A model generated the notes under the pieces. That model was given only the letters and a program-made list of their open reading frames with translations. It was not told the origin of the DNA and ran no database searches. This document shows, piece after piece, positions 1,756 to 42,641 of a stretch of 64,000 bases of DNA; the first letter of the stretch is position 1; every line of letters begins with the position of its first letter. Position numbers and translations under genes: made by a program. The stretch covers positions 788,791 through 852,790 of the forward strand of contig JBMOPU010000012.1 in NCBI GenBank assembly GCA_049322955.1, read 5' to 3'. This DNA comes from Patescibacteria group bacterium (GTDB lineage Bacteria > Patescibacteriota > Microgenomatia > UBA10105 > UBA927).

Positions 1756-1878
1756 ACTATACTTTAACGTGCGTTCGGTCTTCCCTCTATCGCTTGTTAT
1801 ATATGGTGAAAGAATAAAAATGGAAAAGCAATATTTTGTGCATGCCCTACCATTTTCGACACTGATACTCTATGCTGA

Positions 1879-2298: not shown

Positions 2299-2347
2299 CA
2301 AGCGGACGCGACAAGTGAACTTGTAGAGGATCCGGTAATCACCGTAT

Positions 2348-2986: not shown

Positions 2987-3025
2987 TTTTGTGTCCGGCT
3001 CATACAATTTGCTACACTGATATGT

Positions 3026-3973
3026 ATGCTTGGTCATATTGCACTCTATGCATTGGGATTTGCCGGTATATGGTTCGGTGCGGGTATTGCCATACGGGCG
3101 GTGGAGAAAATCGCCCATAAACTCCGACTCTCTTCGTTTCTCGTTTCGTTTCTCGTGCTCGGATTTTTTACCTCGATTAGCGAAGTATCGGTGGGAGTCA
3201 ACGCCGTGCTTTCGGGTCAGCCTGACATTTTCGTGGGAAATCTTATCGGTGCGTCTATCGTGCTGTTCCTTATGGTGATTCCCCTCCTTGCCATTGTGGG
3301 GCACCCCATATCCATAAACAAAGAAGTACGCGGACGCCATCTCATCCTCCCACTCGTGGTTGTTGCTATCCCGGTCTTACTGTCGTTCGACGGCATGGTA
3401 AGCCGTATTGATGCCATCATTGCGGTTACGCTCTTTGCACTATCGGCACTGGTTCTGGAACGGCGGAAAGGGTTTGTCAAAAACGTAGCGACGTACGCCA
3501 CTTTCAAAAATCTGTCGGTAGCAACCGAATTTTCCAAAACGCTCGCGGGATCGCTTATCATTTACGCCTCAAGCTGGATGGTCGTCAATCAGACGCACTA
3601 CTTTTCTACCCTGCTGGGGCTTTCGGATTTTTTCATCAGTCTTATGGTTATCGGCATCGGCACCAACTTGCCGGAACTTTCCCTGATCGTGCGCTCGCTC
3701 TTTATGAAAAGTAATCAGGTGGCGTTCGGCGATTACCTGGGTTCGGCATCATTTAACTCCTTCCTTTACGGCATCCTTACGCTCTGGCACGGAAAATCCA
3801 TTATGTTAAACAATAGTTACGCGGTAAGTTTAGGCTTTCTGATCGTGGGACTGGTCTTATTTTTTATCTTTGCCAAAAGTAAGCACACTATTTCACGCCT
3901 TGAGGCATTGGGATTATTTACGCTCTATATCGCGTTTTTCCTGATTGAAGTATTTACGCACTTACCCGCCTAA
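3026..3973 (+). CDS. Ca2+/Na+ antiporter (CaCA family, YrbG-like)
   Basis: Polytopic membrane protein with the two alpha-repeat signatures GNLIGASIV and GTNLPELSL characteristic of CaCA exchangers. Confidence 0.75.
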   Translation: MLGHIALYALGFAGIWFGAGIAIRAVEKIAHKLRLSSFLVSFLVLGFFTSISEVSVGVNAVLSGQPDIFVGNLIGASIVLFLMVIPLLAIVGHPISINKEVRGRHLILPLVVVAIPVLLSFDGMVSRIDAIIAVTLFALSALVLERRKGFVKNVATYATFKNLSVATEFSKTLAGSLIIYASSWMVVNQTHYFSTLLGLSDFFISLMVIGIGTNLPELSLIVRSLFMKSNQVAFGDYLGSASFNSFLYGILTLWHGKSIMLNNSYAVSLGFLIVGLVLFFIFAKSKHTISRLEALGLFTLYIAFFLIEVFTHLPA

Positions 3974-4945
3974 TCACCGAAGATACGTGTCGATATTCTC
4001 CAGGTGCTCTTCGTAGGTTTCCGCACAGTGAATCTCCCGGTCCGATGAGTGGAGATAGAAAATACAGTCCGTTTCTTCAGGGTTTAACACCGCTTCTATT
4101 GCGGCGAGTCCAGGGTTACTGATGGGTCCGGGCGGAAGTCCTTTATTGCGATACGTATTGTACGGCGATTCCAGGTATTTATCCTGCGGGACCACTCTCG
4201 GCCACCAGCCGTCCTCGCTGTTGCCGCGTATATACTGAAGCGTCGCGTCGATTTCGAGCCGCATGTCGATGTCCAGCCGTTTCCATATGATGCCCGCGAT
4301 AAGCGCCTTGTCGCTATCTCCACCCGATTCCCGTTCGATAAGCGATGCGATTTTTAGCGCCGTCGTCCATTTGATATTTTTTGCCGTAAATTTATCGACG
4401 TACGGCGCGAATTTGGTATTGAAGTTATCCAGAAACCGTTTTGCCACAAGCGGTACGGGTTCATCGGTCGGCAACAGGTAAGTATCGGGAAAATACACTC
4501 CCTCGCGATACTCCGCAGAATCGGCGTTAAAGGCATTCCATTCTTTTTCCTGTTCCGCGGTCCACCCCAGCGTCGTACCCAAGAGTTCACCGATTTGTTC
4601 TTTGCGCAGTCCCTCACGCACGGTCACCCAAAAAAACTGCGGGGTATCCGTAATTTTTTCCGCGATGTCCCATGCGGGCATAGACGTATTGAGTCTATAC
4701 CCTCCCGGCACCACGGACTTCCCCACCGCGGTAATGTCCATAAACAACCGAAAAGCCGCTTCATTTTTGATAAGTCCCAACTTTTTGAGTTCTGCGGGAA
4801 CATCAAATTCGGCATTCTGTTGTGGAACGATGAGCACCCATTGTTCGGCAACGCGACTTACCGGTCCCAGTGTGTTCCACACACCGAATCCGATGGCACA
4901 AAGAGCGAGAGTAAATGCGATGACAAATGAAAGGATGTGCTTCAT
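3974..4945 (-). CDS. mltG: Endolytic murein transglycosylase MltG (YceG-like)
   Basis: N-terminal TM anchor; C-terminal hallmark YNTYRNKGLPPGPISNPG of the YceG/MltG family. Confidence 0.85.
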   Translation of the reverse strand: MKHILSFVIAFTLALCAIGFGVWNTLGPVSRVAEQWVLIVPQQNAEFDVPAELKKLGLIKNEAAFRLFMDITAVGKSVVPGGYRLNTSMPAWDIAEKITDTPQFFWVTVREGLRKEQIGELLGTTLGWTAEQEKEWNAFNADSAEYREGVYFPDTYLLPTDEPVPLVAKRFLDNFNTKFAPYVDKFTAKNIKWTTALKIASLIERESGGDSDKALIAGIIWKRLDIDMRLEIDATLQYIRGNSEDGWWPRVVPQDKYLESPYNTYRNKGLPPGPISNPGLAAIEAVLNPEETDCIFYLHSSDREIHCAETYEEHLENIDTYLR

Positions 4946-4981
4946 GAAGGAAAACCGATTTCCCCATGATACAATCTATAC

Positions 4982-5857
4982 ATGGAAAATTCCATGACTG
5001 TGGCCGTTTCATCTGACTGGAAAGAGTATGAACTGATCGACAGCGGCAACGGCGAGAAACTTGAGCGGTTTTCGTCATATATCATTTCCCGTCCCGACCC
5101 GCGCGCCATATGGAAACCCATTGCCCCCTCCGCCGTATGGGACAGGGCACATGCGCGGTACGTACGGGGATCCAAAGAAGAAGGGTATTGGGACATCAGG
5201 ATGCCTCCCCCGCAAAACTGGCAGGTTCGTTACCATGACCTCGTATTCACCCTGAAACCGACGTCTTTTAAACACGTGGGGGTGTTTCCCGAACAATCCG
5301 TAAATTGGCGATGGATGATGCAGACAATTGCAGGACGTCCGCTCAAGGTATTAAACCTGTTTGCGTACACCGGAGGTGCCACCATGGCGGCGCTTGCGGC
5401 GGGAGCACATGTTACCCATGTAGATAGTGCAAAAGGCGCCATCGAGTGGGCAAAAGAAAACGCCACAGCTTCCGAACTGATCGATAAACCGGTTCGCTGG
5501 ATTACCGATGATGCGGTGAAATTTGCGGCAAGAGAGCTCAAGCGCGGCAATACCTATGACGGCATCATCCTTGATCCGCCGCGTTTCGGCAGAGGACCCA
5601 AAGGTGAGGTGTGGAAAATTGAGGTCGACCTGCCGAAACTTACCCCGATACTCACGGGGCTTTTGTCCCCCAACCCCGCATTTGTTTTGATAAACGCCTA
5701 CACTGCGGACTTATCGGCACTCGTAATCGGTCACTTACTGCAGGATATGACGGCATCTCTTCCGGGCACCCGATCGTTCGGCGAATTGACGATTGCGGAT
5801 TCGACAAGCGGTCGATTGCTTCCCAACGGTATTTTCGCCCGATGGAGCGCTTCCTGA
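4982..5857 (+). CDS. Class I SAM-dependent rRNA methyltransferase (RlmI/RlmK-like)
   Basis: Motif I LNLFAYTGGATMAALAAGA, VDSA, and ILDPPRFGRG (DPPxF) in the same order and spacing as E. coli RlmI catalytic domain. Confidence 0.6.
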   Translation: MENSMTVAVSSDWKEYELIDSGNGEKLERFSSYIISRPDPRAIWKPIAPSAVWDRAHARYVRGSKEEGYWDIRMPPPQNWQVRYHDLVFTLKPTSFKHVGVFPEQSVNWRWMMQTIAGRPLKVLNLFAYTGGATMAALAAGAHVTHVDSAKGAIEWAKENATASELIDKPVRWITDDAVKFAARELKRGNTYDGIILDPPRFGRGPKGEVWKIEVDLPKLTPILTGLLSPNPAFVLINAYTADLSALVIGHLLQDMTASLPGTRSFGELTIADSTSGRLLPNGIFARWSAS

Positions 5858-6023
5858 GCAGATTCAAGTTTGCTATAATAAGGTGCCCTAAAACCGATGC
5901 GAAAAGAGCGAGGTTGCAAAAAGGGCATAATCCGTTGCGAAGGGGTGATACAGTTGGGAGAACCTTCGCAACTTATTGAAGGAAAAGCGTTGGGGAAAAA
6001 CCTCGGTTTTGCCCCATGAAGAT

Positions 6024-6097
6024 GCCCCCTTAGCTCAACGGCAGAGCAGCGGTATCGTAAACCGTAGATGTCAGTCCAATTCTGACAGGGGGCTCCA
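6024..6097 (+). tRNA. tRNA-Thr (anticodon CGT), includes encoded CCA
   Basis: Hand-folded: acceptor GCCCCCT/AGGGGGC, D-arm GCTC/GAGC, anticodon stem GCGGT/ACCGT with loop ATCGTAA (anticodon CGT), T-arm GTCAG/CTGAC, discriminator T then CCA. T-loop (TCCAATT) deviates slightly from canon. Confidence 0.75.
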
Positions 6098-6103
6098 AAA
6101 TTT

Positions 6104-6817
6104 ATGATTTCATCCCGATTACGAAGAGTTGAGGAAAAAAAAGCTTCCAAACGGATGGCAATGGCCGTTATCGGGATGGTGGGAACACTCGTGTTCCTTG
6201 CGCTTTTCGGCGTAAAAATTCTCATCGGTTTCAGTGTGTTAGTGGATAAAATTCGCGGGAACTCCCCCGCCCAACAGCAACCGCAGGAATCCCTGATCCT
6301 TCCGCCGGTACTTGATCCGCTTCCCGAGGCCACCCATAGTGCTACCCTCGACGTGCACGGCAGGGGCACCGCGAAAATGACGGCAATACTTTTCGTCAAT
6401 GACAGTGAGTACAAAAAAGTGCCGATTACCGATGACGGAAGCTTCACCGTCACGGATATTCCGGTCGAACCGGGAACGGTCACCGTACGCGCCAAAATTA
6501 CCGACGGAAAAGACAACACCAGTGATTTTTCCCCCGTCATTTCCACTGTTGTGGATCGAACCCCGCCGAAACTGACCATCGACAATCCCGAAGATAACAT
6601 CACCGTCAATGACGGGACACATAAAGTTACAGTTAACGGGATCACCGATGAAGGCATGAAAGTGACGATCAACGGACGGATTGTCGTCGTAAAATCAGAC
6701 GGATCGTTCACCTACAGCATGCCATTAAATGATGGGGATAATCTTTTGACTATAATCGCCAAGGATCCGGCGGGTAATGAAACTTCGCAAACCCGTAAGG
6801 TTATTTATAAGCCGTGA
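6104..6817 (+). CDS. Membrane-anchored hypothetical protein with Ig-like beta-rich repeats
   Basis: TM helix near N-terminus, Gln/Pro-rich linker, then repeated T/V/D/G-rich beta-strand-like segments (e.g. VTVNGITDEGMKVTINGRIVVV). Confidence 0.45.
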   Translation: MISSRLRRVEEKKASKRMAMAVIGMVGTLVFLALFGVKILIGFSVLVDKIRGNSPAQQQPQESLILPPVLDPLPEATHSATLDVHGRGTAKMTAILFVNDSEYKKVPITDDGSFTVTDIPVEPGTVTVRAKITDGKDNTSDFSPVISTVVDRTPPKLTIDNPEDNITVNDGTHKVTVNGITDEGMKVTINGRIVVVKSDGSFTYSMPLNDGDNLLTIIAKDPAGNETSQTRKVIYKP

Positions 6818-7982
6818 TTTCCTGTTCCATTGTTCCAGTGAGTATCCACAGCCATACCAACACCCACGGGTAAAACAGACTATTCACAAACAGACTGTGT
6901 AAGAGGAGTGCGGTCAACACACCCAGATACGTAGCCGCGGACAACCGATGCTTCTCGCCTGCTCGGTACAGTCGCATCCCCGATCCAAAAAGTGACACGA
7001 GTAACCATACGTACACCCCAAAACCGACAAGTCCTGTAGTCGCTCCCACAAAGAGCAGGCTCGTGTCCAGTCCCGCCCCCGCCCTTGAGGGGACGGACGA
7101 TTCATCAAGCCAGCTCCGCTCTCTTGCCACAAACCGCAAAAGATTAAATCCGTGACCGAATAACGGCTTTTCTTTGATAAGGGTGATCGCCCGCTGGGCA
7201 TTACCGACCCGGGCATACGAAGACACACTGCGGAATAGGTTGCGGCCTTCGCCCGAATTCGGCAGTAACAGAAAACCCACAAGAACTGCGGCGATGACAA
7301 TCCCCGCCAGCTTTTTATACCCGGAAAGTACCGCCCACACGATAAGACCGCCGACCAGTGCGACTATACTACTTCGGGAATACGTCAGGGCAAAGGCAAG
7401 CAACACCAGTCCCGTTAACGCATATCGCATGAACGGTTGCATGCCTTTGTGTTGTGTTCCCAGAAGCGAAAGGAGGGTAAGCGTGAGGATGATCCCCATA
7501 AAATTCGGATCAAGCAGGGTACCGAACAGTCGTTGATAGTGAGGATCCCACCCAAGATACGCAAGATTCCGTAAATCGGGGTACCAAAAATACTGAAGCA
7601 AGCCGACACCCGCCATGCACACTCCGGAGAGGGTGAGTGTACGCCGCCAAACGACGGGAGCAAATAATTTCCCCACGGCTGTCCAATACAACGCGGCATA
7701 TAGGAGGAAACGGAGCACATAAAGGAGTCCTCCTCCCACGACATAGAGCGGCACATTTGTCACTGTCTGTGCCAGTGAAATAAGGCAGATTCCGGTAAAT
7801 GCGATTATCGGTGCCCAAAGATGCGGGATTATACGCTTTTTTCCGCTTCGGAGCGCTCCGTACAAAACGAGGACAAGCACGGAAATATCAAGCAGGGTCA
7901 CCCGCGCACCCAACGCGACGGGCATCGAAATAATGTTTCCCGCGATGAGTCCCGCGGCAAGAAACAGTAAGGGATAGTGCAT
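6801..7982 (-). CDS. O-antigen ligase-like (Wzy_C domain) polytopic membrane protein
   Basis: ~10-12 predicted TM segments with a central larger loop; segment ALTYSRSSIVALVGGLIVWAV resembles Wzy_C/WaaL core; neighbourhood of glycosyltransferases. Confidence 0.5.
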   Translation of the reverse strand: MHYPLLFLAAGLIAGNIISMPVALGARVTLLDISVLVLVLYGALRSGKKRIIPHLWAPIIAFTGICLISLAQTVTNVPLYVVGGGLLYVLRFLLYAALYWTAVGKLFAPVVWRRTLTLSGVCMAGVGLLQYFWYPDLRNLAYLGWDPHYQRLFGTLLDPNFMGIILTLTLLSLLGTQHKGMQPFMRYALTGLVLLAFALTYSRSSIVALVGGLIVWAVLSGYKKLAGIVIAAVLVGFLLLPNSGEGRNLFRSVSSYARVGNAQRAITLIKEKPLFGHGFNLLRFVARERSWLDESSVPSRAGAGLDTSLLFVGATTGLVGFGVYVWLLVSLFGSGMRLYRAGEKHRLSAATYLGVLTALLLHSLFVNSLFYPWVLVWLWILTGTMEQEITAYK

Positions 7983-7983
7983 A

Positions 7984-9066
7984 TCAAAAAATACTTACTA
8001 GCCAAAGTATAATCGCTCCGATAGTCCCGTGAGAAGCGGGTATCCACCCGAACGGCAAACCGGTGAAAAATCCCGGTGATGCAACATTGGCGCTTATCAA
8101 CAGATACCCGAGCACCAAGAGGCCCCGAAACATCTTTTTTTCATTACGTTTCCACAACACAAAAAAAGTCGGAATCAAAAAAACAAAGTGATGTTGCCAG
8201 GCAATGGGTTCGACAAGCAAAAATACCGGCATTGCAAGCCATAATGCCTCGGGAAACCGTATTTTATTTTTTCGGAACGCAGAGGCGGTTACGGTGATGA
8301 TGATACCCGCGATAATTGCGTACGAAATAACGTCTGTTGTTCCCATTCGCGCCAACAATCCCGTAATCCCCTGATTGTAGTAGATACCGTGATCCTGCCA
8401 TGTCCCCATTGCTTTCTGCATCCGTTCCGCGTATCGCACGTACGCATCAAATCCGTACACGCCCAACGATGCGATACCAACACCTGCCATCCACGCACCA
8501 ACGGAAAGCAGAGTCGTCCACCGACGGTATGCCAGAAGCACCGCCAGGAGAAGGATAACCTCCGGCTTGATAAGAACAGCCAGCGCGAATAATCCGCCCA
8601 TTACCAGCCGGTGATATTTATTTTCATAATAAATCGCACCGATAATGAGTGCCAACGCGTAAAAATTAACTTGCCCCATCCCCAAGGTAAATTGACTGGG
8701 AAATGACAAATAGCTCAAAGCGACAAGGGTAAGTGTCGTTCGCGTGTCGGTTACTCCTGATTGTCTTGCCAGGAACCATACGATACCGACAAGACTGGCA
8801 AATGAGCCAAGTATCCATAACGCTTCCATAATTTCATACGGAAGAAGCGCCAACGGGGAAAATACCAATAGCGACGCGGGGGGCAACAGGTGGATGGGAC
8901 GCGGGACGTTTCGTATTACCTCTCCGGCCGCCTCGTAGTAATAGAAAAAATCCGGTGCGGATGTGGCGATGATCCGAAACACGGAAACCGCGGCCTTGAG
9001 CGCCGCGCCGACAACGACAACCCATTGAGCGACGACAATTACCCGCGCTGATTTTGGAGTTGCCAT
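7984..9066 (-). CDS. DUF2029 / GT87-like integral membrane glycosyltransferase
   Basis: Polytopic membrane protein with the DFFYYYEAA-type motif seen in DUF2029 (GT87 mannosyltransferase-like) proteins. Confidence 0.45.
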   Translation of the reverse strand: MATPKSARVIVVAQWVVVVGAALKAAVSVFRIIATSAPDFFYYYEAAGEVIRNVPRPIHLLPPASLLVFSPLALLPYEIMEALWILGSFASLVGIVWFLARQSGVTDTRTTLTLVALSYLSFPSQFTLGMGQVNFYALALIIGAIYYENKYHRLVMGGLFALAVLIKPEVILLLAVLLAYRRWTTLLSVGAWMAGVGIASLGVYGFDAYVRYAERMQKAMGTWQDHGIYYNQGITGLLARMGTTDVISYAIIAGIIITVTASAFRKNKIRFPEALWLAMPVFLLVEPIAWQHHFVFLIPTFFVLWKRNEKKMFRGLLVLGYLLISANVASPGFFTGLPFGWIPASHGTIGAIILWLVSIF

Positions 9067-32377: not shown

Positions 32378-32978
32378 AACTCCGTATTTTTTTCATACCG
32401 AGTTATTATAACAGGCATAACTCCTCCATGCGGTATGAAATCTCTCATTACCCCTGTTCTGCTCCTCTGATGAGAAAACCGACATACCGCGGTATAATAA
32501 TCAGTTATGGGCTACCGCACCGTCGCAAAATGGGAAATAGATATCGGAGAAATGCAGGAAACGCAGGGTCTTGCCCGAATGTTCGGCAGTCTGTACCGGC
32601 AGGAATTCGGTATAAATTTCGAAATCAGGAAACGCGTTTTACCGTCAAAACGTCGGATCTCATGACTCTACGGGAAATTGAGAGACTTCTTCCCCAGCTT
32701 GCCCGTATCCGTTATCAGCATCACCACAAATACGGAACGGGAAACGATTACGGCAGACCCGTTGAGGATGATGAGATAACCGCAACACTCGAAGGCTTCG
32801 GTGTACGACTCCCCGGATGGCTCAGATAATTCCTTTGCAAGACATTTCGCACGCACCCGATCTTGTGTATTTTCCTGAAATGCACCAGGCATGCAGAGAA
32901 AACTTCCTGTTGTTTGCCACACGAAATAATCGCGCGCAATGCGAGCATTGAGGCATACGTGTGCCTCAGATGATATTG

Positions 32979-33698
32979 CTACTTGGTAATCACGTATTCC
33001 TTCTCGGGAACCGCTCCGATAAATGTCATCGTACCGTCGGCAAATGATACTTCATCCGCACGGAACGCATCCGTATGCTTGGCGATCACGTCATTAAGCA
33101 CCGATTCAGCCTCTTTATTTGCCCGCGCCACTATATCACCGGGGATAGGAATGGCACCTATCTTTACGGTGCGCGCGTCAACTTGCACGGAGTTGTTTCG
33201 AACCGATCCCTTGCCCAATACGTATATAGGTACGGCAAACGGCGGAATCGCGTATGTTTTCATCGCATCGCGTATTTGCTGTTCCGAATACCCCAACGCC
33301 ATAGCATAAGGCATGGCTTTATCGACAAGAAGGATCGCGGAACTTTCTATAGTTCCGTCGTCATGGATCTTTATCTGGATATTTTTCACCGGATAGTTTT
33401 TCCATGAGCGGTTATTTGAGTGCGCGGTAAGTTCGGTGCTGTTCATGGTGAACGAAACGGATTTCTTCCCTTCCAGCCGAAAATCGTCCGCTGGAGAGGC
33501 ATCACTGGGAAGCGAAATTATTTCAGTGCCTCCGCTCTTTTTCCATGCGGCACGTGAATCGTCGAGCGCATATCGTATCCCCAGATCTTTTTGTCCGGCT
33601 CCGATCAGATTTGAAAGACCCGGAATAACGCCGATCCCGGCAAGGATAATCGCCACGATGATGATGACGAGGGAAAGAAAAATGAGTACATATTTCAT
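32979..33698 (-). CDS. Membrane-anchored extracytoplasmic hypothetical protein
   Basis: Start set at internal Met (MKYVLIFLSLVIIIVAIILAGIGV) giving a TM anchor; ORF-track N-terminal extension to 33779 is unlikely. Confidence 0.45.
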   Translation of the reverse strand: MKYVLIFLSLVIIIVAIILAGIGVIPGLSNLIGAGQKDLGIRYALDDSRAAWKKSGGTEIISLPSDASPADDFRLEGKKSVSFTMNSTELTAHSNNRSWKNYPVKNIQIKIHDDGTIESSAILLVDKAMPYAMALGYSEQQIRDAMKTYAIPPFAVPIYVLGKGSVRNNSVQVDARTVKIGAIPIPGDIVARANKEAESVLNDVIAKHTDAFRADEVSFADGTMTFIGAVPEKEYVITK

Positions 33699-33791
33699 AT
33701 GGCGACAGTATACGCCACCCATGGCACATTGCTGTACGATATCCCACCGAATGAAACGTAGCCTCGCTACCTGAAACAAAAGGGAGATGCG

Positions 33792-34139
33792 TCACTTATT
33801 TACCAGGGCATTGAGGAAACTGTTGACGACAGACAGGACGATAACCGCAAGCACGGCGGTGCCGAAACCGTCTATCCTGAATCCGGGCACGATCGCACCG
33901 GTAATAAGCATAAGAAGGGCATTAATAACAATGGTAAACAACCCAAACGTCAGAATATTTATGGGAAGCGTAAGCAAGAGAAGCACCGGTTTAATACTCA
34001 CGCTCAATATCCCCCACACGATCGCAATCACAAAAAGCGAAATCCATCCGCTTATGGTAATACCCGGGAGAATATATGCGGTAATATAAAACGCCAACGC
34101 ATTGATGAGAAACCGCATCAGCATGAATTTATTATACAC
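33792..34139 (-). CDS. DUF360 / phage-holin-4_2 family small membrane protein
   Basis: 115 aa, 3-4 TM helices; ILPGITISGW...FGLFTIVINALLMLITGAIVPGFRIDGFGTA resembles the YvlD/DUF360 family. Confidence 0.6.
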   Translation of the reverse strand: MYNKFMLMRFLINALAFYITAYILPGITISGWISLFVIAIVWGILSVSIKPVLLLLTLPINILTFGLFTIVINALLMLITGAIVPGFRIDGFGTAVLAVIVLSVVNSFLNALVNK

Positions 34140-34160
34140 GCATACGTCAGAAAGCGCTGG

Positions 34161-34487
34161 TCATTTGCCGCGTTTAGGTTTATCCTTCTTCCGACGACGA
34201 AGAAGGAACTGCAATAACGTCATACCCTCAGGCAATTGGTATCGAGATTCTTCCCATGCTTTATCACGCGTGCCCGTCAGCGTATTGTTCTCTTTTGTGC
34301 CGGATCGCAACGCCGCACCGTCCCGTTCTTCATGAAATTCCGAAATCGCCCGCGATAGGTCGTCGTCATGCTCAATTCGGATCGGTTCATCTTCTTTTGC
34401 CATACAGAGGGCAGAACGGTCACAATAGTACACCTTGTTCACGTCCATTGAAAGGAAACTGCAGGATGCACGTGACCGGATAACCAT
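34161..34487 (-). CDS. Hypothetical small protein with Lys/Arg-rich C-terminus
   Basis: ORF co-directional and adjacent to the DUF360 gene; ends RRRKKDKPKRGK; no motif recognised. Confidence 0.3.
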   Translation of the reverse strand: MVIRSRASCSFLSMDVNKVYYCDRSALCMAKEDEPIRIEHDDDLSRAISEFHEERDGAALRSGTKENNTLTGTRDKAWEESRYQLPEGMTLLQFLLRRRKKDKPKRGK

Positions 34488-34501
34488 CGTAAAATGTTAC
34501 A

Positions 34502-34903
34502 ATGAGAGACGAAAGGAAAAACAGCATGAAAAAATACGGCGGATTTTGGAAACGGTTATTGGCGTACGCGATTGACTCACTCCTCATATACGCACTTTTT
34601 TGGCTGATTCCCGGCATCGATATGGATAACGCATGGGTCAATATGCTTATGTTTCTGACGTGGACCGCTTATTTCGTATGGATGGTGGGCACCTATGGCG
34701 CCACGATCGGGAAAATGATCCTCAAAATGAAAATCGTCAAAGAAAACGGCAAATCGCTCACCTATTCCGATGCATTACTGCGGGAGCTCGCCAGCTATTT
34801 GTCCTTCCTGGTGCTTGGTCTCGGCTATTTTTCGATCGGCTGGGATCCCCGCAAACAGGGCTGGCATGACAAGATCGCCAAAACGCTAGTGGTAAATGCC
34901 TAA
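34502..34903 (+). CDS. RDD family membrane protein
   Basis: GFWKRLLAYAIDSLL...WDPRKQGWHDKIAKTLVV carries the R-D-D signature positions of RDD-domain proteins. Confidence 0.7.
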   Translation: MRDERKNSMKKYGGFWKRLLAYAIDSLLIYALFWLIPGIDMDNAWVNMLMFLTWTAYFVWMVGTYGATIGKMILKMKIVKENGKSLTYSDALLRELASYLSFLVLGLGYFSIGWDPRKQGWHDKIAKTLVVNA

Positions 34904-34959
34904 CCAAGAGACATAAGAAGACCGGTGATATCGAGCCAAATGGTTTTTCCCGTGTCCGG

Positions 34960-35271
34960 TTACACGACTTCCTCGAGGTAATAATCGCAGGCAAATCCTT
35001 TGTCCTTTTGATGCCCGTGATGATGTGTCGTATCAATCACCTTTGCATCGGCAACCTTCCACCTTTTCCCGCGGTACCACGCGATATGCCCCGTCGGTAT
35101 GCTATCGAGATCCGTAACCATCCGGCGAAGTTGTTTGGACGGATGATCGAGGTGAATATGAAGTATTGCTTTTCGTGCCGGTCGTTCACGGAATGTTTCT
35201 AAACCCGCGCCAACCAATAGATCATTGGTGATATCTTCCGCCGTATATGTTTCGACACCTTGCCTGCACAT
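34960..35271 (-). CDS. Hypothetical protein with metallo-beta-lactamase-like HxHxDH motif (possibly truncated)
   Basis: AILHIHLDHPS (HxHxDH) plus downstream His cluster (HHHGH) in only 103 aa, too short for a full MBL fold. Confidence 0.25.
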   Translation of the reverse strand: MCRQGVETYTAEDITNDLLVGAGLETFRERPARKAILHIHLDHPSKQLRRMVTDLDSIPTGHIAWYRGKRWKVADAKVIDTTHHHGHQKDKGFACDYYLEEVV

Positions 35272-35348
35272 AGATTTGATAATTATATCAAACTATATCA
35301 ATACGAAGAGGGTGAGCGAATTATGCAAACTGCAATACCGACATGTAT

Positions 35349-35852
35349 TCATTTCAAGTCGCGAACAAATAATTGATCCTGCTGGGACCATCGGAGATGC
35401 GCAAGCACGATAAAGGCCTTATATCGTTCAAGTGCCTGCTCAGATCTTGCTCCGTCAATGTTTTCAATATCAATAGGTTGCGGCATACCAAGCCTTCGCA
35501 CCCCACTTTCCGGAAGAGTAGCTACGGCAATTGCTTCCGACATCAAAAAATCATCCCAGCGCATCCCCGTCGCCACTCTCCATGAAACTTTCGACCTCGC
35601 TCCTTGTAATTGTTGTAATACCATGTCATCGCCGCGGGCTTCAAAACTACTCACAGCGGCCTCAGTGTTTTTATAGCGAAGTACCGTCGAAAAGTCACCG
35701 GTTATGGGCGTACGCACCACATGACGCTCATGCCCGACAAGTAACCCCGTATCAAGCCGTTCGATATCCAATTGAGGCACGATCATGCGGAGATATCGAC
35801 GATACGCTCCCGATTGCAACGGGTACCGTTCTTTCATTGCTTCAAAATTCAT
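35349..35852 (-). CDS. Hypothetical protein (167 aa)
   Basis: Protein-like ORF; no family recognised. Confidence 0.4.
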   Translation of the reverse strand: MNFEAMKERYPLQSGAYRRYLRMIVPQLDIERLDTGLLVGHERHVVRTPITGDFSTVLRYKNTEAAVSSFEARGDDMVLQQLQGARSKVSWRVATGMRWDDFLMSEAIAVATLPESGVRRLGMPQPIDIENIDGARSEQALERYKAFIVLAHLRWSQQDQLFVRDLK

Positions 35853-35899
35853 AGAGATGCATTATACCTCAACGGATAAAGGTACTGCCATCAAGCACA

Positions 35900-36559
35900 C
35901 TAGAGTACGAGTGTATGGCCGTTTTTGCGTAGCCATGTTCGTGCCGATGCATATTCGGGATAAAACTCCCCTACCCGAGCCCAAAAGGACAAACGATGAT
36001 GCGGATGAGTGATATGGGCAAGTTCATGGATTACGACATAATCAATAATCGAAATCTCGGCCAAGATAAGCCGATACGAAAAACTGATGGTTCCCGTGCT
36101 CGAGCAGGAACCCCACCGGCTTGAAGTATCCCGTATGGAAACCCGCCGATAGGTAACCTTCATTTTTTCGGAAAAAAACGATACCCGTTTTGTGAGAAAC
36201 TCCTTGGCGTATTTGCGGCAGAATTGTTCCATATGATACTTCGGCTTTGCGAGAAATTTTTTGGGAAAAAATATTCGGGAGGGGGTGAGCACAATGGCAC
36301 TGCCGTCCGTGAGGTGGAGTGTGTAATCCTTTCCTCCCAATCGAAACAATTCGCCTTCTTCATACACTCTCTCTTTCTTCTTGGGAACGGATGCCAGTCT
36401 GCGCCGCGTGTTGTCTATCCAATCTTGCTTTGATGCGACAAATTGTCGGATAAAAAACTCCGGCATGTATTTGGGAGCACGTACTTCCAGTTCACCCGTC
36501 GGGAGAATATGAAGGGAAATTGATCTTCGGGGAAGGCGTTTGAGGATGTCGATGCGCAT
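35900..36559 (-). CDS. YgjP-like (DUF45/M48-related) zinc metallohydrolase
   Basis: C-terminal WGSCSSTGTISFSYRLILAEISIIDYVVIHELAHITHPHHRLSFW matches YgjP/DUF45 signature including HExxH. Confidence 0.75.
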   Translation of the reverse strand: MRIDILKRLPRRSISLHILPTGELEVRAPKYMPEFFIRQFVASKQDWIDNTRRRLASVPKKKERVYEEGELFRLGGKDYTLHLTDGSAIVLTPSRIFFPKKFLAKPKYHMEQFCRKYAKEFLTKRVSFFSEKMKVTYRRVSIRDTSSRWGSCSSTGTISFSYRLILAEISIIDYVVIHELAHITHPHHRLSFWARVGEFYPEYASARTWLRKNGHTLVL

Positions 36560-36638
36560 ATGCTGTAAAGCGTATGGTACACCATGCGTAACCCTTCGTC
36601 ATATTGCACATAATTTTAACCTATAGTATAATCCGCGG

Positions 36639-37259
36639 ATGACAAATACACGAGAAGCTTATCTTAAAATTGCATACGCAGGGCCGATTCTTAAAACGCG
36701 TTGGATTAACGACGTGTTTAACACGTATCTGGATCAACCACAGGGTGAGACCAACGTTGCGGCACTTGCCGTCGGAGGTTGTGAGGAATTACCTCATTTA
36801 CGTTTCTTTACCGGTCACGGCGCAAACATTCATGCGTTCGATATTCTGCAACCATCCATGAGAATGCGGGATTTATCAGAGTACGCCAAAGTTCAGTATC
36901 ATCGCGAAGGCATACAGCGTATTGACAAGGTCATACGCCATCTAGGCGGTGAACCTAATCTTGTCATATGTCGCGCACCTCGAATACTTGAGACAGTTTC
37001 GAAGCACGGATTTAAATTCAATAGATGGTGGGCAGACACTCTTGCAGGGTATGGGGAGAGAGTAGGCGGAAATGGACAAATGCTTGTGACCACCTATACA
37101 GGTGAAGAACGCGATATTGTTGCTGAAGCGTTAGATAAGCGTGCGATAAGTTTTTCAACCTATGAAAACGACTTATGCCCCATTAACGTCCCGAACTATA
37201 CCGGACCAAACGGTCCCATCAGAGCGGGAATAGACAAATACGTTTTGGTAAGCCGGTAA
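36639..37259 (+). CDS. Hypothetical protein, possible Rossmann/methyltransferase-like fold
   Basis: VAALAVGGCEE (motif I-like) followed ~17 aa later by IHAFDI (acidic post-I); otherwise unassigned. Confidence 0.35.
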   Translation: MTNTREAYLKIAYAGPILKTRWINDVFNTYLDQPQGETNVAALAVGGCEELPHLRFFTGHGANIHAFDILQPSMRMRDLSEYAKVQYHREGIQRIDKVIRHLGGEPNLVICRAPRILETVSKHGFKFNRWWADTLAGYGERVGGNGQMLVTTYTGEERDIVAEALDKRAISFSTYENDLCPINVPNYTGPNGPIRAGIDKYVLVSR

Positions 37260-37278
37260 TCAACCGGATGCGTATCGG

Positions 37279-37845
37279 CTAGATTCTGAATATCCGTTGA
37301 CGCAGTACTTCCGCCACTCCGTACCATCGTCCGCGAATCCAACGCTTTGCCAAGATAACGCCGATAACGTTACTTTCGGCATCAATCACAGGCTTTCCCG
37401 AAAAACCGAAATCCACGCGCTGACCGAGCGAAGATACGATGAGCTCTCTCGGTGCCCGACGCAATAAAACAGGTTTTTCTTTCGATACGGTCATCACCCG
37501 ATCGGTCGGCGGCATCAAGGGTATCGGAGACCCCAAAGTCACGTACTCAACGCCCGGTGTATAGTGCGTGGCGACTGATAATGCCTCGTTTATCGCAACG
37601 GGCTCGCTAAGCGATATATCCCGTGATCCGGCTACCTTTTCGAATGCAAGGTTCCTAAACGTTGCATTCCCAACCCTATTTCGCAGAATAAGCGCACGGG
37701 GCTCATGCGTTTTGCTGTCATGACTCACATGATACGCGGTAAGGATGCGGATACTCCCCTGGAGCCATATGGCACAAGCACCCCCGATAGGACCGTCACC
37801 GAAATACGCATCAAAATTTGATTGAGCGAGTTCTTGGGTATTCAT
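37279..37845 (-). CDS. Trypsin-like (S1/chymotrypsin fold) serine protease, apparently cytoplasmic (no signal peptide)
   Basis: His box ILTAYHVSHD (TAAHC-like), Ser box FGFSGKPV (GDSGGP-like); 188 aa; no N-terminal hydrophobic segment. Confidence 0.55.
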   Translation of the reverse strand: MNTQELAQSNFDAYFGDGPIGGACAIWLQGSIRILTAYHVSHDSKTHEPRALILRNRVGNATFRNLAFEKVAGSRDISLSEPVAINEALSVATHYTPGVEYVTLGSPIPLMPPTDRVMTVSKEKPVLLRRAPRELIVSSLGQRVDFGFSGKPVIDAESNVIGVILAKRWIRGRWYGVAEVLRQRIFRI

Positions 37846-37999
37846 AGCGCAATGGTGAGCATTATACTATAAGCTGTTTTGAGGCAAAATATCCTTACTT
37901 ACCATTTCGCATGATGTAAATTCGGGTATCGCCTGCGGCTTTTCTGAGGAGCGTACGTCGATTATTTTTGGCTAAACTGCCGCCATATTATGTGATATA

Positions 38000-38533
38000 A
38001 TGGAGCGTATGAACGCAAAAAATCAGACGGTTTCGTTTCGTCAAAGTAGCGTAATATTAATCATGCGACTTATCCTCGCCGAATGTATTATTCTTGGGGT
38101 AAATATTGCCCTTAAGTTACCACAGCTTGCCACTTCTGCACTCATGAATGACACCTCGGCAGTGACATCGTTGACTCTGATGAGTATTACGAGTCTCATC
38201 GCATCATCAATATTTCAACTTGCTCTGATCGCGTATATAACCCTGGACTGGACGAATCACGAATACGAAATTCGCGATGGTGCGATCATCCATCGACACG
38301 GTATTTTTTACCGAAAAGAAGAAATATATTCACTGCGTAATCTCGGCTCTGCCGTCATTTCTCAGTCTTTGTTGGGTCGACTATTTAACTTTGGAAGTAT
38401 TCACGCATACAGTCCGATCTTAAAACAGGATGTTCACATGCTTCTGGTACATAACCCCCAAGATATCGTGCATCACATACAAGACGACGTGGAACACACC
38501 GGAGGCAAACACGAAGTTATCCGTCGCAGTTAA
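38000..38533 (+). CDS. Membrane protein with bacterial PH (bPH_2/YdbS-YdbT-like) domain
   Basis: Two N-terminal TM helices followed by YEIRDGAIIHRHGIFYRKEEIYSLRNLGSAVISQSLLGRLFNFGSI typical of DUF304/bPH_2. Confidence 0.55.
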   Translation: MERMNAKNQTVSFRQSSVILIMRLILAECIILGVNIALKLPQLATSALMNDTSAVTSLTLMSITSLIASSIFQLALIAYITLDWTNHEYEIRDGAIIHRHGIFYRKEEIYSLRNLGSAVISQSLLGRLFNFGSIHAYSPILKQDVHMLLVHNPQDIVHHIQDDVEHTGGKHEVIRRS

Positions 38534-38732
38534 TGGCGCACTACAAAAAGGCGTCCAATACCGATACTCATTCGCGTGACGAAGCGGGTATTCCGATAAC
38601 CCCATACTCTTTCGAGAAATTGCACCCTTCCCTGTTTTTGGCAGATGCACTCAATATTGCCTCTGCCGAAAAAGATTTCTTTCCGCCTATTGTTTTTATA
38701 CCCGCACCCTCTCACCCGAAGACGGCGAAATG

Positions 38733-38774
38733 CAGAGAACAAAACAACCCATCGATATTTCTACCGATGGGTTG
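38733..38774 (-). terminator. Rho-independent terminator downstream of 38790..39776
   Basis: Perfect 10-bp inverted repeat CAACCCATCG/CGATGGGTTG (38745-38774) followed on the minus strand by TTTTGTTCT. Confidence 0.45.
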
Positions 38775-38789
38775 AAAAATTAAAAAACT

Positions 38790-39776
38790 TTACTTACTCC
38801 AATTTCCAAGACCTGATCGAATCTGACTTCTGTAACTCATTGTATTAAATTCATTACAGGGGTCTCTACTTACTTCTTGGATAACCGCGAAATCGCCCCA
38901 TATTGCAGGTCCAATTTCTCTACCACCTTCTGATTCATACCACATACCTTCTCCATAAGGAGTTGAGACTAACGAATCATGATGGGAACCTGTAGATACA
39001 GCAACGATTTTTACAAAATCACTCACTGAACACATTTCAAATTTTTTTGTTGCTCGACCGCTCGTGCTACTCCATGTTCCAGAGTCACCATACACGACAT
39101 CAGACCAAGTACCATTCATTGTTCCGTCCACTGCAACTGTTCCAATAAAAGTAGCAACATAGCCTAACATTGGAGCATCATACGTCAAAGTAAAAGCCAC
39201 ATTACTTCCAGTAATACTACCCGCAACAGTCCATGTATAACCTGCAGGAACATTACTACCAGTTCCTGTAATGTTTCCATTTACATCTTGGGTAATGGTC
39301 ATCGTTTTTGCGTATGTCCCTGGATACTTTGTACTGACTACATCAAAGTCCCATACACCCGACAAATTCAAGCTATACTTTGTTGTACTTGGATATGTTC
39401 CTGTAATATGGTTAGTCAACCACGCTCCTGAACCTTGAACTGGATTGGGCCTATCTAACTTGAAATCGGTGTCACAACTTTTGTTACTTAACCAAGCATC
39501 GTTCCACTTCATCATCAAGTTAAGACTGCCTTCTGTAACTGGCATAGTTGGTCTACTAAAATTTTCATATAGACCATTGAACATATGGGCTTGATAGTTA
39601 TATCCCCATTGATCGTATCCGAGTCCAATTATTTGACCTATCGCATCAGTCAACATACCTCCTTGAATTGTCTTGCACACATCTACCGCTGGCTTTGCGG
39701 ATTCAACGGGAGAAGCGACAAGAACAAATACTATACCAATTAAAACAAACATCAATAGTTTTTTCATCTTGTTCAC
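38790..39776 (-). CDS. Secreted hypothetical protein (signal peptide, Cys-containing, Thr/Gly-rich beta-rich), AT-rich, strong SD
   Basis: N-terminal signal peptide MNKMKKLLMFVLIGIVFVLVASPVESA; GGAGGTG Shine-Dalgarno 7 nt upstream of ATG (unusual relative to other genes here); AT-rich codon usage. Confidence 0.55.
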   Translation of the reverse strand: MNKMKKLLMFVLIGIVFVLVASPVESAKPAVDVCKTIQGGMLTDAIGQIIGLGYDQWGYNYQAHMFNGLYENFSRPTMPVTEGSLNLMMKWNDAWLSNKSCDTDFKLDRPNPVQGSGAWLTNHITGTYPSTTKYSLNLSGVWDFDVVSTKYPGTYAKTMTITQDVNGNITGTGSNVPAGYTWTVAGSITGSNVAFTLTYDAPMLGYVATFIGTVAVDGTMNGTWSDVVYGDSGTWSSTSGRATKKFEMCSVSDFVKIVAVSTGSHHDSLVSTPYGEGMWYESEGGREIGPAIWGDFAVIQEVSRDPCNEFNTMSYRSQIRSGLGNWSK

Positions 39777-39799
39777 CTCCTTTCATTATCAATTTGCAC

Positions 39800-39822
39800 A
39801 AAAAACCCGCCTCCGCGGCGGG
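39800..39822 (-). terminator. Orphan rho-independent terminator/attenuator hairpin immediately upstream of 38790..39776
   Basis: CCCGCC-TCCGC-GGCGGG hairpin followed on the minus strand by TTTTTT; no minus-strand ORF >=60 aa lies upstream of it for ~850 bp. Confidence 0.4.
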
Positions 39823-40677
39823 TGTCACGAAACAACACTACGTACTTTTTCTACGTAACTTTTCATGTCTTTTGTATCGTATCACATCTTATAGTCATAG
39901 TATGTAAAGCACCATACAACCGACCTGGCGGATATGGAATAAAAGATTGCTATGTAGGGGACGGGTATATCTTCTCCACCGATATTCGATATGCACGATC
40001 TGACCGAGGATCAACCGTATCAAACCCAAGCTCAGCCTCATTGCTCAAGATCCATTGTTTGATCAGAGCTCCTCCTATGAATTTGATTGCGTTATGCAAA
40101 GTAATTGTTCAAATACATGTTCAGACAAAATAAACTCATGGGATAAACAGTATTGCTATAATCAATGCGTTGAACCGTCAAAGCTGAATGTCAATCTAAA
40201 ACCTTATCAAAAACTAAATCTGACTATTTCTATAAACTGGTAAATAAATATTGTTATGAACTATACTAATTATTAGTATGACACCAATACTTATAGGGTT
40301 TATTATATTTACATTAATTATAGTCATAATAACTTTAATTCTAGAAAAACACCTACAGATCCTAATGGCAAAACTAGAATGGTAGTAGAGGGCTCTGATG
40401 GAAAGAGCAAAACTTACGAAATGTCTAATAAGGATGCCGATAATTTCACCGAGGCGATCTTTAAGGAAAGGTTTTTTGGTACGAAGAAGTGATTATGTTC
40501 TCTAAAAGGCAATTAAATTACACAAACGCTTCATTTGTCCCAAGCCGCTCCTTAGTCCTCGCGAAACCTCATTAATTTGCAGTCACCCTCCCCATGGCAT
40601 ACGTAACCAGGCTCAATTATATCCTATAGTTTGCAACTCTTTAACTTTTCTTCTATAATTGCCGCCGACGTAACCCT

Positions 40678-41451
40678 ATGGCAGAAAAAAGAAAACCCAC
40701 CATCTCGCCAGAGCAGATGCCTCGCTTCTCACACCCTCGCTGGCTTGCGGGTTTTCTCGAAGTCGGCGGCAGTATGAAGCTCACTATCGTGCGTAATCAT
40801 CAGAATGGGCATGAGACTCCCCAGGCACGACCCGAAATCGCTTACGGCGACGATGATCTGGATCGGATAACCAGACTTCGTGAGCTATGGGGAAGCACCG
40901 ACAAAGTTCGAACGGCGCGCTCCACAAGTTATGCGATTGTCCGAGGTGACCGTGCGGTATATATGGCCAACTCGATAGCTCCTGACGCCCTATCGAGACG
41001 CACTATCATCACCGCATTTCTTGATTGGCTACGTGCCGATTTTACCGAAGACCGTGTGGCGATAGCAGAGGGTGTCGTTGGGAGACGAACAGTTGATCCC
41101 GTACAACCGAAAGAATACCGCGGACTTGTACAAGACCCGGAGTTTGTCGCCGGAGTTATCGACTGTCGGGCTCGCGTGGCACCGGGCGAACAACCGGACA
41201 GAAAAAGAATTTCGTATTGGATATCGCACGTGGTCAAAGTGAATTCCGTAAACGGACCGCTCCTTGAGGCATTGCAATCGCAACATGGCGGACAATTTGT
41301 TCAAATCGGAAAAATGGGAGAAACCGTCCCTATGCGCGGCAAACAAGTTACCCTGAAAAACGATGCATTTGAGTGGATACTCGGTGCGGCAAACGCAAAG
41401 AACTTGATTACCTGGGCAAATCCAAGGCTTCCAATATCAAACGAAAAGTGA
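40678..41451 (+). CDS. Putative LAGLIDADG-like homing-endonuclease-fold protein (two degenerate motifs), free-standing
   Basis: First motif PRWLAGFLEVGGS (LAGLIDADG-like) at aa 21-33 followed by the expected ...DDLDRITRLRELWG... helix region; second motif FVAGVIDCRA at ~aa 148 followed by ...LLEALQSQHGGQFVQ..., spacing (~125 aa) typical of double-motif LAGLIDADG enzymes. GC-rich gene adjacent to AT-rich DNA. Confidence 0.4.
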   Translation: MAEKRKPTISPEQMPRFSHPRWLAGFLEVGGSMKLTIVRNHQNGHETPQARPEIAYGDDDLDRITRLRELWGSTDKVRTARSTSYAIVRGDRAVYMANSIAPDALSRRTIITAFLDWLRADFTEDRVAIAEGVVGRRTVDPVQPKEYRGLVQDPEFVAGVIDCRARVAPGEQPDRKRISYWISHVVKVNSVNGPLLEALQSQHGGQFVQIGKMGETVPMRGKQVTLKNDAFEWILGAANAKNLITWANPRLPISNEK

Positions 41452-41459
41452 GTTTATCG

Positions 41460-42641
41460 TTAACTCCTCTGTCGTAGGAATGCGGGGATGTCGAATTCGT
41501 CCTCTTCGGGAGGCGCGTCATCAGTTTGCGGGGCAAAACTCACGGGCGGCTGTTGCTTCATGGGTTGCTCCATAGGAGTGACGGGTTGCACGGGCGGCTT
41601 ACCGAAGGTCGGAGATTGTCTGCTAAAACTTCCGCCGTATCGCGGATCCATGGCGGGCTTACTGCTTAATTCACGCAGTCGCTTCTTGGTTTCATCAAAC
41701 CCTGTCGCCACCACCGTAATCTTGATCTGATCCACCAGTTTTTCATCGATGATGGCGCCGAAAATGATGTTGGCATCGGGATCCACCGCAGATGAAATAA
41801 GCTTTGCCGCCTCATCCACTTCGGCCATCGTGAGATCGTTGCCGCCGATGATGTTAAATAACACTCCCTTGGCTCCTTCGATGGTCGTTTCAAGAAGCGG
41901 CGAGGCAATCGCGGTACGTGCCGCGGTTGCCGCACGGTTTTCACCTACTCCCGTGCCGATTCCCATAAGGGCGCTTCCCGCATTGGTCATGATGGCGCGG
42001 ACATCCGCAAAGTCCACGTTGATAAGTCCCGGCATGGTGATCAGGTCAGAAATGCCCTGCACACCCTGACCCAACACGGAATCCGTGACGCGGAATGCTT
42101 CGACCAATGTCATTTTCTTGTCGATCACTTCAAGGAGCCGTTGGTTCGGGATGACGATAAGCGTATCCACTTTGTCCTTAAGATTTGCGATCCCCTCTTC
42201 CGCAGACACCATGCGTCGGGTGCCTTCGAAGTGAAAGGGCTTGGTGACAACGGCAACGGTCAGTGCGCCGACTTCTTTGGCAATTTCTGCAAACACGGGA
42301 GTGGCTCCCGTCCCCGTGCCGCCGCCTTCACCGCAGGTCAAAAAAACCATGTCGCTGTCGCGAAGATGCTCGGCAATCTTTTCCCGTGATTCCTCCGCCG
42401 CCTGTCGGCCGATATCGGGATTTCCCCCGGCACCCAATCCGCGGGTCAGGTTATCACCGATTTGGATTTTGCTTTGCGCTTGGGAAAGAAGCAATGCCTG
42501 CGCGTCGGTATTGACGGAAATAAAATCCACGCCGTTAATCTGATTGTTGAGGATCATGGAGTTGACGGCATTACTTCCGCCGCCGCCGATGCCGACGACT
42601 TTAATTTTGGCAAACCTTGCGATATCCGGTTTTATAAGCAT
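41460..42641 (-). CDS. ftsZ: Cell division protein FtsZ
   Basis: Tubulin signature GGGTGTG ([16 protein letters not shown]), N-terminal [16 protein letters not shown]-terminal conserved peptide DIPAFLR. Confidence 0.95.

Follow-up and report, generated by a model that had tools for sequence, protein, structure and literature searches.

The described systems closest to the genes considered here are of several kinds. In retron type XI a protease is fused to a reverse transcriptase (RT). On Klebsiella IncF plasmids a gene of the YgjP/SprT family (PF01863, COG1451) overlaps the end of hsdR, at the close of type I restriction-modification (R-M) operons (hsdM-hsdS-hsdR) within a plasmid defence island. 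Small class I SAM methyltransferases include CbiT, RsmH/MraW, TrmN and TrmI-like proteins, and flexible islands are found between core genes. Partial likenesses to all of these occur within one short interval of a Patescibacteria chromosome.

We analysed a 64,000-nucleotide stretch of DNA (the window) from a Patescibacteria group bacterium, and within it a block of mostly small genes that lies between ileS/macAB and the ftsZ/dcw cluster, both conserved anchors. The source is a MAG with a contig of 990,597 bp; the chromosome measures about 1 Mb. An earlier sequence-only reading had listed nine open reading frames (ORFs) in this block, all of which were found again with the same coordinates and strands (Table 1), and had grouped a serine protease, a zinc hydrolase and several unassigned proteins as a possible defence, abortive-infection or stress module. 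Pfam placed three of the nine proteins (DUF360, RDD and YgjP) in the families named by that reading, and the other six in none above threshold. Protein accessions run consecutively from the RDD protein (MFZ5535400) to FtsZ (MFZ5535409), suggesting one annotated coding sequence per ORF over this interval. Against conspecific strains, the dN/dS values of five genes (mem239, YgjP, p206, p167 and the protease) lie between 0.07 and 0.21, which indicates that the block genes are real; p103 has too few changes for a judgement of this kind.

Table 1. Features of the block and its immediate surroundings (positions in the window).
Feature	Position	Strand	Basis or remark
107-aa gene	32507..32829	+	frameshifted in the window; missing from the earlier list
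mem239, membrane-anchored protein	32979..33698	-	ORF
DUF360 / Phage_holin_4_2 membrane protein	33792..34139	-	PF04020, E 1.9e-30
p108, small hydrophilic protein	34161..34487	-	ORF
RDD-family membrane protein	34502..34903	+	PF06271, E 1.1e-26
p103	34960..35271	-	103-aa orthologs
Strain-specific segment with p167, 607 bp	35302..35908		blastn breakpoints, junction sequences
p167	35349..35852	-	ORF; variable accessory gene
YgjP-like HExxH zinc metallohydrolase	35900..36559	-	PF01863, E 5.4e-56
Strain-specific segment with p206 and promoter-like site, 679 bp	36609..37287		strain comparison
p206, predicted class I SAM-methyltransferase fold	36639..37259	+	structure prediction
prot188, small cytoplasmic serine protease	37279..37845	-	invariant His/Asp/Ser
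Strain-specific low-GC insertion, 2.57 kb, just beyond the block	37985..40555		strain comparison

Comparison with related loci (L001 to L015) makes it likely that the block is a recombining, strain-variable flexible segment and not one system. Same-species loci, whose housekeeping proteins are 97-100% identical, differ in gene content at five points within 9 kb. All four combinations of p206 and p167 were seen among conspecific strains: both genes in the window and in L014, p167 without p206 in L012, p206 without p167 in L007/8 and neither in L001-3. The p167 segment is replaced by an unrelated 34 bp in L001-3 and L007/8, and the p206 segment by 9 bp in L001-3 and L012. At the third site, just beyond the block, the window carries 2571 bp, L001 has 4 bp and L007/L008 hold different cargo. 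This insertion has a GC content of 0.37-0.43, versus about 0.48 in the neighbourhood, and encodes a bPH_2 membrane protein (38000-38533, + strand; Pfam E 1.1e-8) and a 328-aa protein (38790-39776, - strand) with a hydrophobic N-terminus, probably secreted. The three insertions have clean breakpoints, all intergenic; no flanking repeats were found at these breakpoints, and no tRNA, integrase or repeats lie beside the insertions at this locus. In addition, L014 lacks macAB and mem239.

From one gene to the next, dS varies between 0 and 0.35 (ileS 0.005, holin 0, protease 0.22-0.31, ftsZ 0.31-0.35), a mosaic that points to recombination. Islands with integrase, Phage_CRI, NYN and DUF4238 genes adjoin ftsZ in sister strains, a few kb from the block. 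The locus thus shares with flexible islands between core genes its several independent insertions within 9 kb, one of them low in GC, the gene-to-gene variation in dS and the integrase islands of sister strains. It differs from them in that mostly single small genes are set precisely into intergenic DNA in the absence of repeats, a tRNA or an integrase beside them in the window. The mechanism of gain and loss proposed here is an inferred one: the conserved flanks would recombine homologously and so give rise to the differences in gene content, and in sister strains integrase islands would integrate site-specifically beside ftsZ. The earlier description of the interval as an accessory block is therefore borne out by its strain variability and by the integrase islands with defence-type cargo nearby. 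A single operon or co-conserved module is not what was found, since the mixed orientation of the genes calls for five transcription units or more, p206 and p167 come and go independently of each other, and relatives have p167 at other places.

The flexible segment would hold genes of different kinds. One class would consist of the clade-conserved envelope genes mem239, DUF360, RDD and p108. On reading its sequence, mem239 has a hydrophobic N-terminal membrane anchor and a soluble domain; it has no Pfam family, but its orthologs in L005 and L006 are 65-68% identical, its dN/dS against conspecific strains is 0.07, and it is conserved in the clade, usually near the DUF360 gene. The DUF360 protein is a polytopic membrane protein encoded by a chromosomal gene that is kept in all relatives compared, with orthologs at 69-71% identity in L005/L006 and at 65% in L014. 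Despite its Pfam match we rejected it as a holin of a phage lysis cassette; mem239, p108 and the RDD gene adjoin it, there is no lysin or phage context, and the only PHROGs match (E 0.009) is to a family of unknown function. The next gene, p108, had been described as encoding a small basic protein, which is so for its C-terminal tail, but overall the protein is only mildly basic (pI 8.84). It is species-restricted, without a family match in Pfam, PADLOC or PHROGs, 93-100% identical in conspecific strains, and shows a dN/dS of 0.05-0.23 in L007 and L014. Divergent from it, the two start codons 14 bp apart, lies the RDD gene, whose product PGAP names 'RDD family protein'. The 107-aa gene missing from the earlier list is highly conserved but has no Pfam family; its C-terminal 71 residues are 87-100% identical at the amino acid level in L001, L005, L006 and L007, and a 1-nt deletion after about position 32612 causes the frameshift in the window.

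A second class would be a clade-restricted pair of cytoplasmic hydrolases, the protease prot188 and YgjP, usually followed by p103. In prot188, residues H39 (LTAYHV or TAYHV), D76 (SRDISL; SRDxSL) and S149 (GFSGKP) are invariant in 11 sequences, and they follow the trypsin-like order His, Asp, Ser within TAxH, D and GxSGxP-like motifs. No signal peptide was apparent on reading the sequence. We consider prot188 a small serine protease of the cytoplasm that carries trypsin-like motifs, much as the sequence-only reading had proposed, and its family is lineage-restricted and tiny (10 clusters in 5.8e9 proteins, 8 representatives in 1.84e9). Pfam Trypsin_2 matched it with 14 bits (E 0.087), below the cutoff of 27.6, and the PDB yielded only a weak match to HtrA2 (E 0.7) around the Ser motif. 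Its best match in any profile library was to the protease domain of PADLOC RT-Protease_XI (E 5e-6, profile positions 359-487 of 510). It thus resembles the protease part of the retron type XI RT-protease, and its His/Asp/Ser triad has the arrangement known from trypsin-like proteases, but it is a stand-alone protein of 188 aa and the match is at domain level only. We rejected it as a retron type XI RT-protease, as there is no fused RT domain and no retron ncRNA match: no block protein or immediate neighbour had a Pfam RT match above threshold, and an Rfam scan of the window gave only two tRNAs.

YgjP matches PF01863 over profile positions 1-206 of 207 with 190 bits against a cutoff of 26, and its HExxH motif reads HELAH (HELAHITHPHH). 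PGAP names it 'M48 family metallopeptidase', and in the PDB it matches proabylysin weakly. It shares the family name with the hsdR-overlapping gene of the Klebsiella plasmids, but is only about 23% identical to the proteins encoded there, and it is flanked by a small serine protease, p103 and variable genes, with no hsdR, hsdM or hsdS adjoining. As an R-M-associated gene it was accordingly rejected, its neighbours being p167/p103 and p206/protease.

The product of p103, downstream of YgjP, had been read as an HxHxDH fragment. It proved to be a full-length protein with 103-aa orthologs in L001, L004, L007, L012 and L014, and without relatives in Pfam, PDB or viral searches. A paralog with 41% identity, beside a NYN gene of the integrase island in L001, has HIHLKR in place of HIHLDH. 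A metallo-beta-lactamase fragment was rejected on the uniform length of the orthologs, the altered motif of the paralog and the missing Lactamase_B match.

The order protease, YgjP recurs in four species-level lineages (the window species, L004, L005 and L006) and is kept down to 55% protease identity, which may reflect a functional link. In L004, L006 and those strains of the window species that lack p206, the two genes are co-directional and 45-95 bp apart; in L005 one 171-aa gene separates them. Being co-directional and about 50 bp apart in the simplest strains, they were probably once co-transcribed. Both occur in all conspecific strains seen and both are under purifying selection, and in the window species and L004 the gene after YgjP is p103. 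One could accordingly see the protease, YgjP and perhaps p103 as a small clade-specific cassette, a two-hydrolase pair for processing or quality control or a toxin/regulator-type pair, with the other genes as passengers inserted around it. We regard this as rather unlikely. In three conspecific strains p206 sits reversed between the protease and YgjP, and neither gene shows signs of decay; in L005 and L006 a non-homologous 98-aa gene takes the place of p103; and in the more distant L013 and L015 the protease has no YgjP downstream, a PMT glycosyltransferase following it in L013. Moreover, only about seven distinct lineages had usable flanks, all close relatives sharing the ileS/ftsZ synteny, so that adjacency may be simply inherited and descent is not cleanly separable from functional linkage. 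The block genes as a whole are not co-conserved, although this one adjacency does recur in close relatives, and several of them are lineage-restricted orphans and not ordinary housekeeping orthologs.

That the block, or its core of protease, zinc hydrolase and unknowns, is an as yet uncharacterised module for abortive infection or defence against phages, as first suggested, appears highly improbable. In sister strains the variable locus acts much as a hot spot for incoming defence-type cargo, and islands a few kb away match NYN/HEC-09 and DUF4238-Pers; the protease recalls a retron domain, and distant YgjP homologs end R-M operons in the Klebsiella island. However, PADLOC (PADLOC-DB v2), run on the nine listed proteins and the bPH_2 neighbour, returned no system, the protease being the only one of the ten with any match. 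No R-M subunit gene or RT is found in or next to the block, and no viral relatives of the protease, p206, p167 or p103 were found. Defence genes usually differ between strains, whereas the protease and YgjP do not vary in presence among the conspecific strains seen, and dN/dS values of 0.1-0.2 do not indicate diversifying selection. The 'effector-like' unknowns segregate independently, and p167 occurs in housekeeping contexts elsewhere. A point against the flexible-segment reading is that in L006 a SAM-methyltransferase non-homologous to p206 adjoins YgjP, perhaps a sign that methyltransferase and YgjP genes are recurrently associated. A variant reading places the protease, YgjP and p103 at a hot spot of integration and sees in them a cassette for conflict or defence not described before from ultra-small Patescibacteria. 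This reading, in which the cassette would be tuned or counteracted by interchangeable neighbours (the SAM-methyltransferase-fold gene, a possible GNAT, the methyltransferase of L006), seems to us very improbable.

Under the preferred reading of a flexible segment, a third class would comprise independent insertions into intergenic DNA: p206, p167 and the low-GC pair of bPH_2 and 328-aa genes. Structure prediction was run on p206 and p167. The 'Rossmann-like' label given to p206 holds and can be refined: the model is that of a stand-alone, divergent protein with a seven-strand class I SAM-methyltransferase fold, with an invariant VG-x-x-EE after strand 1 and an invariant D68 after strand 2. It differs from the small class I SAM methyltransferases named above in its low identity to them (7-17%) and in an unusual invariant C-R-A-P-R after strand 4, and no Pfam methyltransferase family was detected. 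The gene runs opposite to the protease and YgjP, between which it is inserted, and is preceded by a promoter-like TGCACA-16-TATAAT at 36605-36632. The lineage-restricted p167 possibly has a GNAT-like fold. Outside the window species its homologs adjoin TK/DinB or a GNAT, or follow an ACR_tran transporter gene, and in no case are they accompanied by YgjP or the protease. Most likely each inserted gene would work by itself, its product being an accessory enzyme of modification or an envelope protein.

These results define a serine-protease family that is tiny and highly divergent, carries trypsin-like motifs and has kept its catalytic triad intact, and the predicted structure assigns a methyltransferase fold to p206, which no sequence library could place. 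If functional, the protease-YgjP pair would, on weak evidence, represent a novel cassette of two hydrolases that only the candidate phyla radiation has. The block is largely ordinary and, given that its parts segregate independently, ought not to be taken for a candidate defence system. Even in Patescibacteria genomes of about 1 Mb, genes turn over between strains at a dense hot spot beside ftsZ.

All nine open reading frames that a sequence-only reading had listed between the MacAB exporter and ftsZ were present, each at its proposed position and on its proposed strand, and the proposed holin-like, RDD and YgjP domains were all backed by Pfam (Table). The six remaining listed proteins matched no family in Pfam, NCBIfam or PHROGs, and searches of all block proteins with PADLOC, NCBIfam and PHROGs added nothing to Pfam except a weak RT-Protease_XI domain match. 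Judging from its numbering, the accession series up to FtsZ (MFZ5535409) is consistent with one annotated CDS per ORF. The genes mem239, YgjP, p206, p167 and the protease are real, since their dN/dS ratios against conspecific strains were 0.07-0.21. From the gene orientations, the block comprises at least five transcription units.

Table. Features of the block and of its flanks (window coordinates)
Feature	Position	Strand	Characteristics
107-aa gene	32507-32829	+	not in the sequence-only list
mem239	32979-33698	-	membrane-anchored
Phage_holin_4_2/DUF360 protein	33792-34139	-	Pfam E 1.9e-30
p108	34161-34487	-	
RDD protein	34502-34903	+	Pfam E 1.1e-26; PGAP 'RDD family protein', MFZ5535400
p103	34960-35271	-	orthologs all 103 aa
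p167	35349-35852	-	
YgjP-like protein	35900-36559	-	Pfam E 5.4e-56; HELAHITHPHH; PGAP 'M48 family metallopeptidase', MFZ5535403
p206	36639-37259	+	
Protease (prot188)	37279-37845	-	188 aa; very small family
bPH_2 membrane protein	38000-38533		
328-aa protein	38790-39776		hydrophobic N-terminus
257-aa protein	40678-41451	+	adjoins ftsZ

The 107-aa gene is the most conserved of the interval, with 87-100% amino-acid identity across species versus 65-70% for its neighbours. The window copy lacks one nucleotide after approximately position 32612 (GGTA-TAAATTT versus GGTATTAAATTT), which marks it as a pseudogene unless the assembly is wrong at this point.

Contigs bearing homologs (L001 to L015) were fetched, and tblastn and blastn served to compare them with the window. 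Among the same-species loci (n = 6, housekeeping proteins 97-100% identical), p206 and p167 are presence/absence variants that vary independently: L014 carries both, as does the window, L012 only p167, L007 and L008 only p206, and L001-L003 neither. The block is thus not co-conserved as a whole. Three clean, intergenic breakpoints were found, at 35302-35908 (607 bp versus 34 bp), 36609-37287 (679 bp versus 9 bp, with a promoter-like site for p206 in the longer form) and 37985-40555 (2571 bp, strain-specific, with a low GC of 0.37-0.43, versus 4 bp). The last segment encodes the bPH_2 protein and the 328-aa protein, which is probably secreted; in other strains its site holds either 4 bp or different genes (283-aa, 114-aa). 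None of the three insertions is flanked by repeats, direct or inverted, or by cassette-like ends beyond short matches at chance level, and a transposon or integron-cassette origin was therefore dropped. In L014 (WBZO01002665.1, 4500-6400) macAB and mem239 are missing and ileS lies directly after the conserved 107-aa gene, so that the MacAB-type exporter is also accessory in this species.

Synonymous divergence between conspecific strains ranged from 0 to 0.35 in adjacent genes, with dS values of 0.005 for ileS, 0 for the holin-like gene, 0.22-0.31 for the protease and 0.31-0.35 for ftsZ (the uneven values cover 37279-37845 and 41460-42641, compared with L001, L007 and L012), and the protease allele of the window is unlike those of all four other strains. 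This mosaic points to recombination between diverged lineages. Integrase islands lie between ftsZ and the protease in L001-L003 and in L004, a contig of a sister species, and the ftsZ-proximal spot is therefore regarded as an integration hot spot. The L001 island (987-8813) carries an integrase, HTH and Omega-repressor-like genes and an NYN gene (PADLOC HEC-09, E 2e-11); that of L004 (1096-7149) carries an integrase, a DUF4238 gene (PADLOC DUF4238-Pers) and a Phage_CRI replication initiator. The 257-aa protein is conserved in all conspecific strains. It shows by eye two LAGLIDADG-like motifs, WLAGFLEVGGSM and FVAGVIDCRARV, and its only sequence match is the homing endonuclease I-PanMI, at an insignificant E of 0.38. 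Possibly the protein is a free-standing homing endonuclease that has degenerated.

Outside the species, the sole recurring adjacency was that of the protease followed by YgjP, co-directional and with gaps of 45-95 bp, as seen in L004, L006 and the strains of the window species without p206. A mini-cassette formed by these two genes, possibly with p103, would account for this arrangement; we consider it unlikely. The pair recurs in L005 too, separated by a 171-aa gene, but the adjacency is lacking in L015 and in L013, where a PMT glycosyltransferase gene comes after that of the protease. Co-transcription of the pair is dispensable, since in three conspecific strains p206 lies between the two genes in opposite orientation and neither has decayed. 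p103 lies downstream of YgjP in L004 and the window species alone; in L005 and L006 an unrelated 98-aa gene occupies its position. Because the ileS/ftsZ synteny is common to all lineages, inherited order and functional linkage are not separable. Beyond the window species p167 homologs never accompany YgjP or the protease; their neighbours are thymidine kinase/DinB, a GNAT or an upstream ACR_tran transporter gene. In L011 (3421-5025) the homolog (65% identity) follows two tandem genes of approximately 169 aa behind the ACR_tran gene.

The protease family is represented by 10 clusters among 5.8 billion proteins, and a profile search retrieved only 8 representatives (E ≤1e-3) among 1.84 billion. 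Scans of genomes and of metagenomes each added one same-species locus, plus one 'Woesebacteria' MAG; tblastn against phages gave no match. The His-Asp-Ser triad is complete, as His39 (LTAYHV), Asp76 (SRDxSL) and Ser149 (GFSGKP) are invariant in the 11 sequences compared, and the N-terminus has no hydrophobic segment, in agreement with the proposed lack of a signal peptide. The top profile match was the protease domain of PADLOC RT-Protease_XI (E 5e-6, positions 359-487 of 510); Pfam Trypsin_2 reached only E 0.087. In the literature we found nothing useful on the function of YgjP/DUF45/COG1451.

p103, previously taken for an HxHxDH fragment, is instead a full-length small protein. Its origin as a metallo-beta-lactamase fragment was rejected, as it has no Lactamase_B match and its HIHLDH motif is HIHLKR in a 41%-identical paralog. 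This paralog (L001, 7756-8064) lies inside the integrase island, directly upstream of the NYN nuclease gene, which suggests that mobile elements carry the p103 family along. Comparison of p103 with the 98-aa gene of L005/L006 was negative, as was that of p167 with the 171-aa gene of L005. p167 had no Pfam match at E up to 1; a fold search with a low-confidence model gave a weak GNAT enrichment, and hhalign detected no similarity to the neighbouring GNAT or the two tandem L011 proteins; a GNAT identity may serve as a lead. p206 has a methyltransferase fold, and its RVT_connect match (E 0.039) was therefore judged to be noise. In L006 a Methyltransf_11-class SAM-methyltransferase gene (1683-2393, minus strand) directly adjoins YgjP; it has no detectable sequence similarity to p206, and its position could be a coincidence or reflect a recurring methyltransferase-YgjP neighbourhood.

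That the block is a defence module, a possibility raised in the sequence-only reading, appears very improbable. PADLOC left nine of the ten proteins without a match, the tenth being the domain-level match of the protease; the block contains neither a reverse transcriptase nor a restriction-modification (R-M) subunit gene, Rfam found two tRNAs and no other RNA family in the window, and scans of viral contigs with the protease, p206, p167 and p103 gave no relatives. The HEC-09 and DUF4238-Pers matches in the islands are mildly favourable to this idea, as are distant YgjP homologs at the end of type I R-M operons on Klebsiella plasmids, although these share only about 23% identity with YgjP here. 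Such points show a variation hot spot and a possible link of the YgjP family to defence systems, not a defence role of the block.

The block is probably a patchwork, in which conserved envelope genes would stand beside independently acquired accessory genes and a protease/YgjP pair that is restricted to the clade and whose linkage is uncertain. What is new here is limited to divergent members of known enzyme folds and the description of a flexible region.
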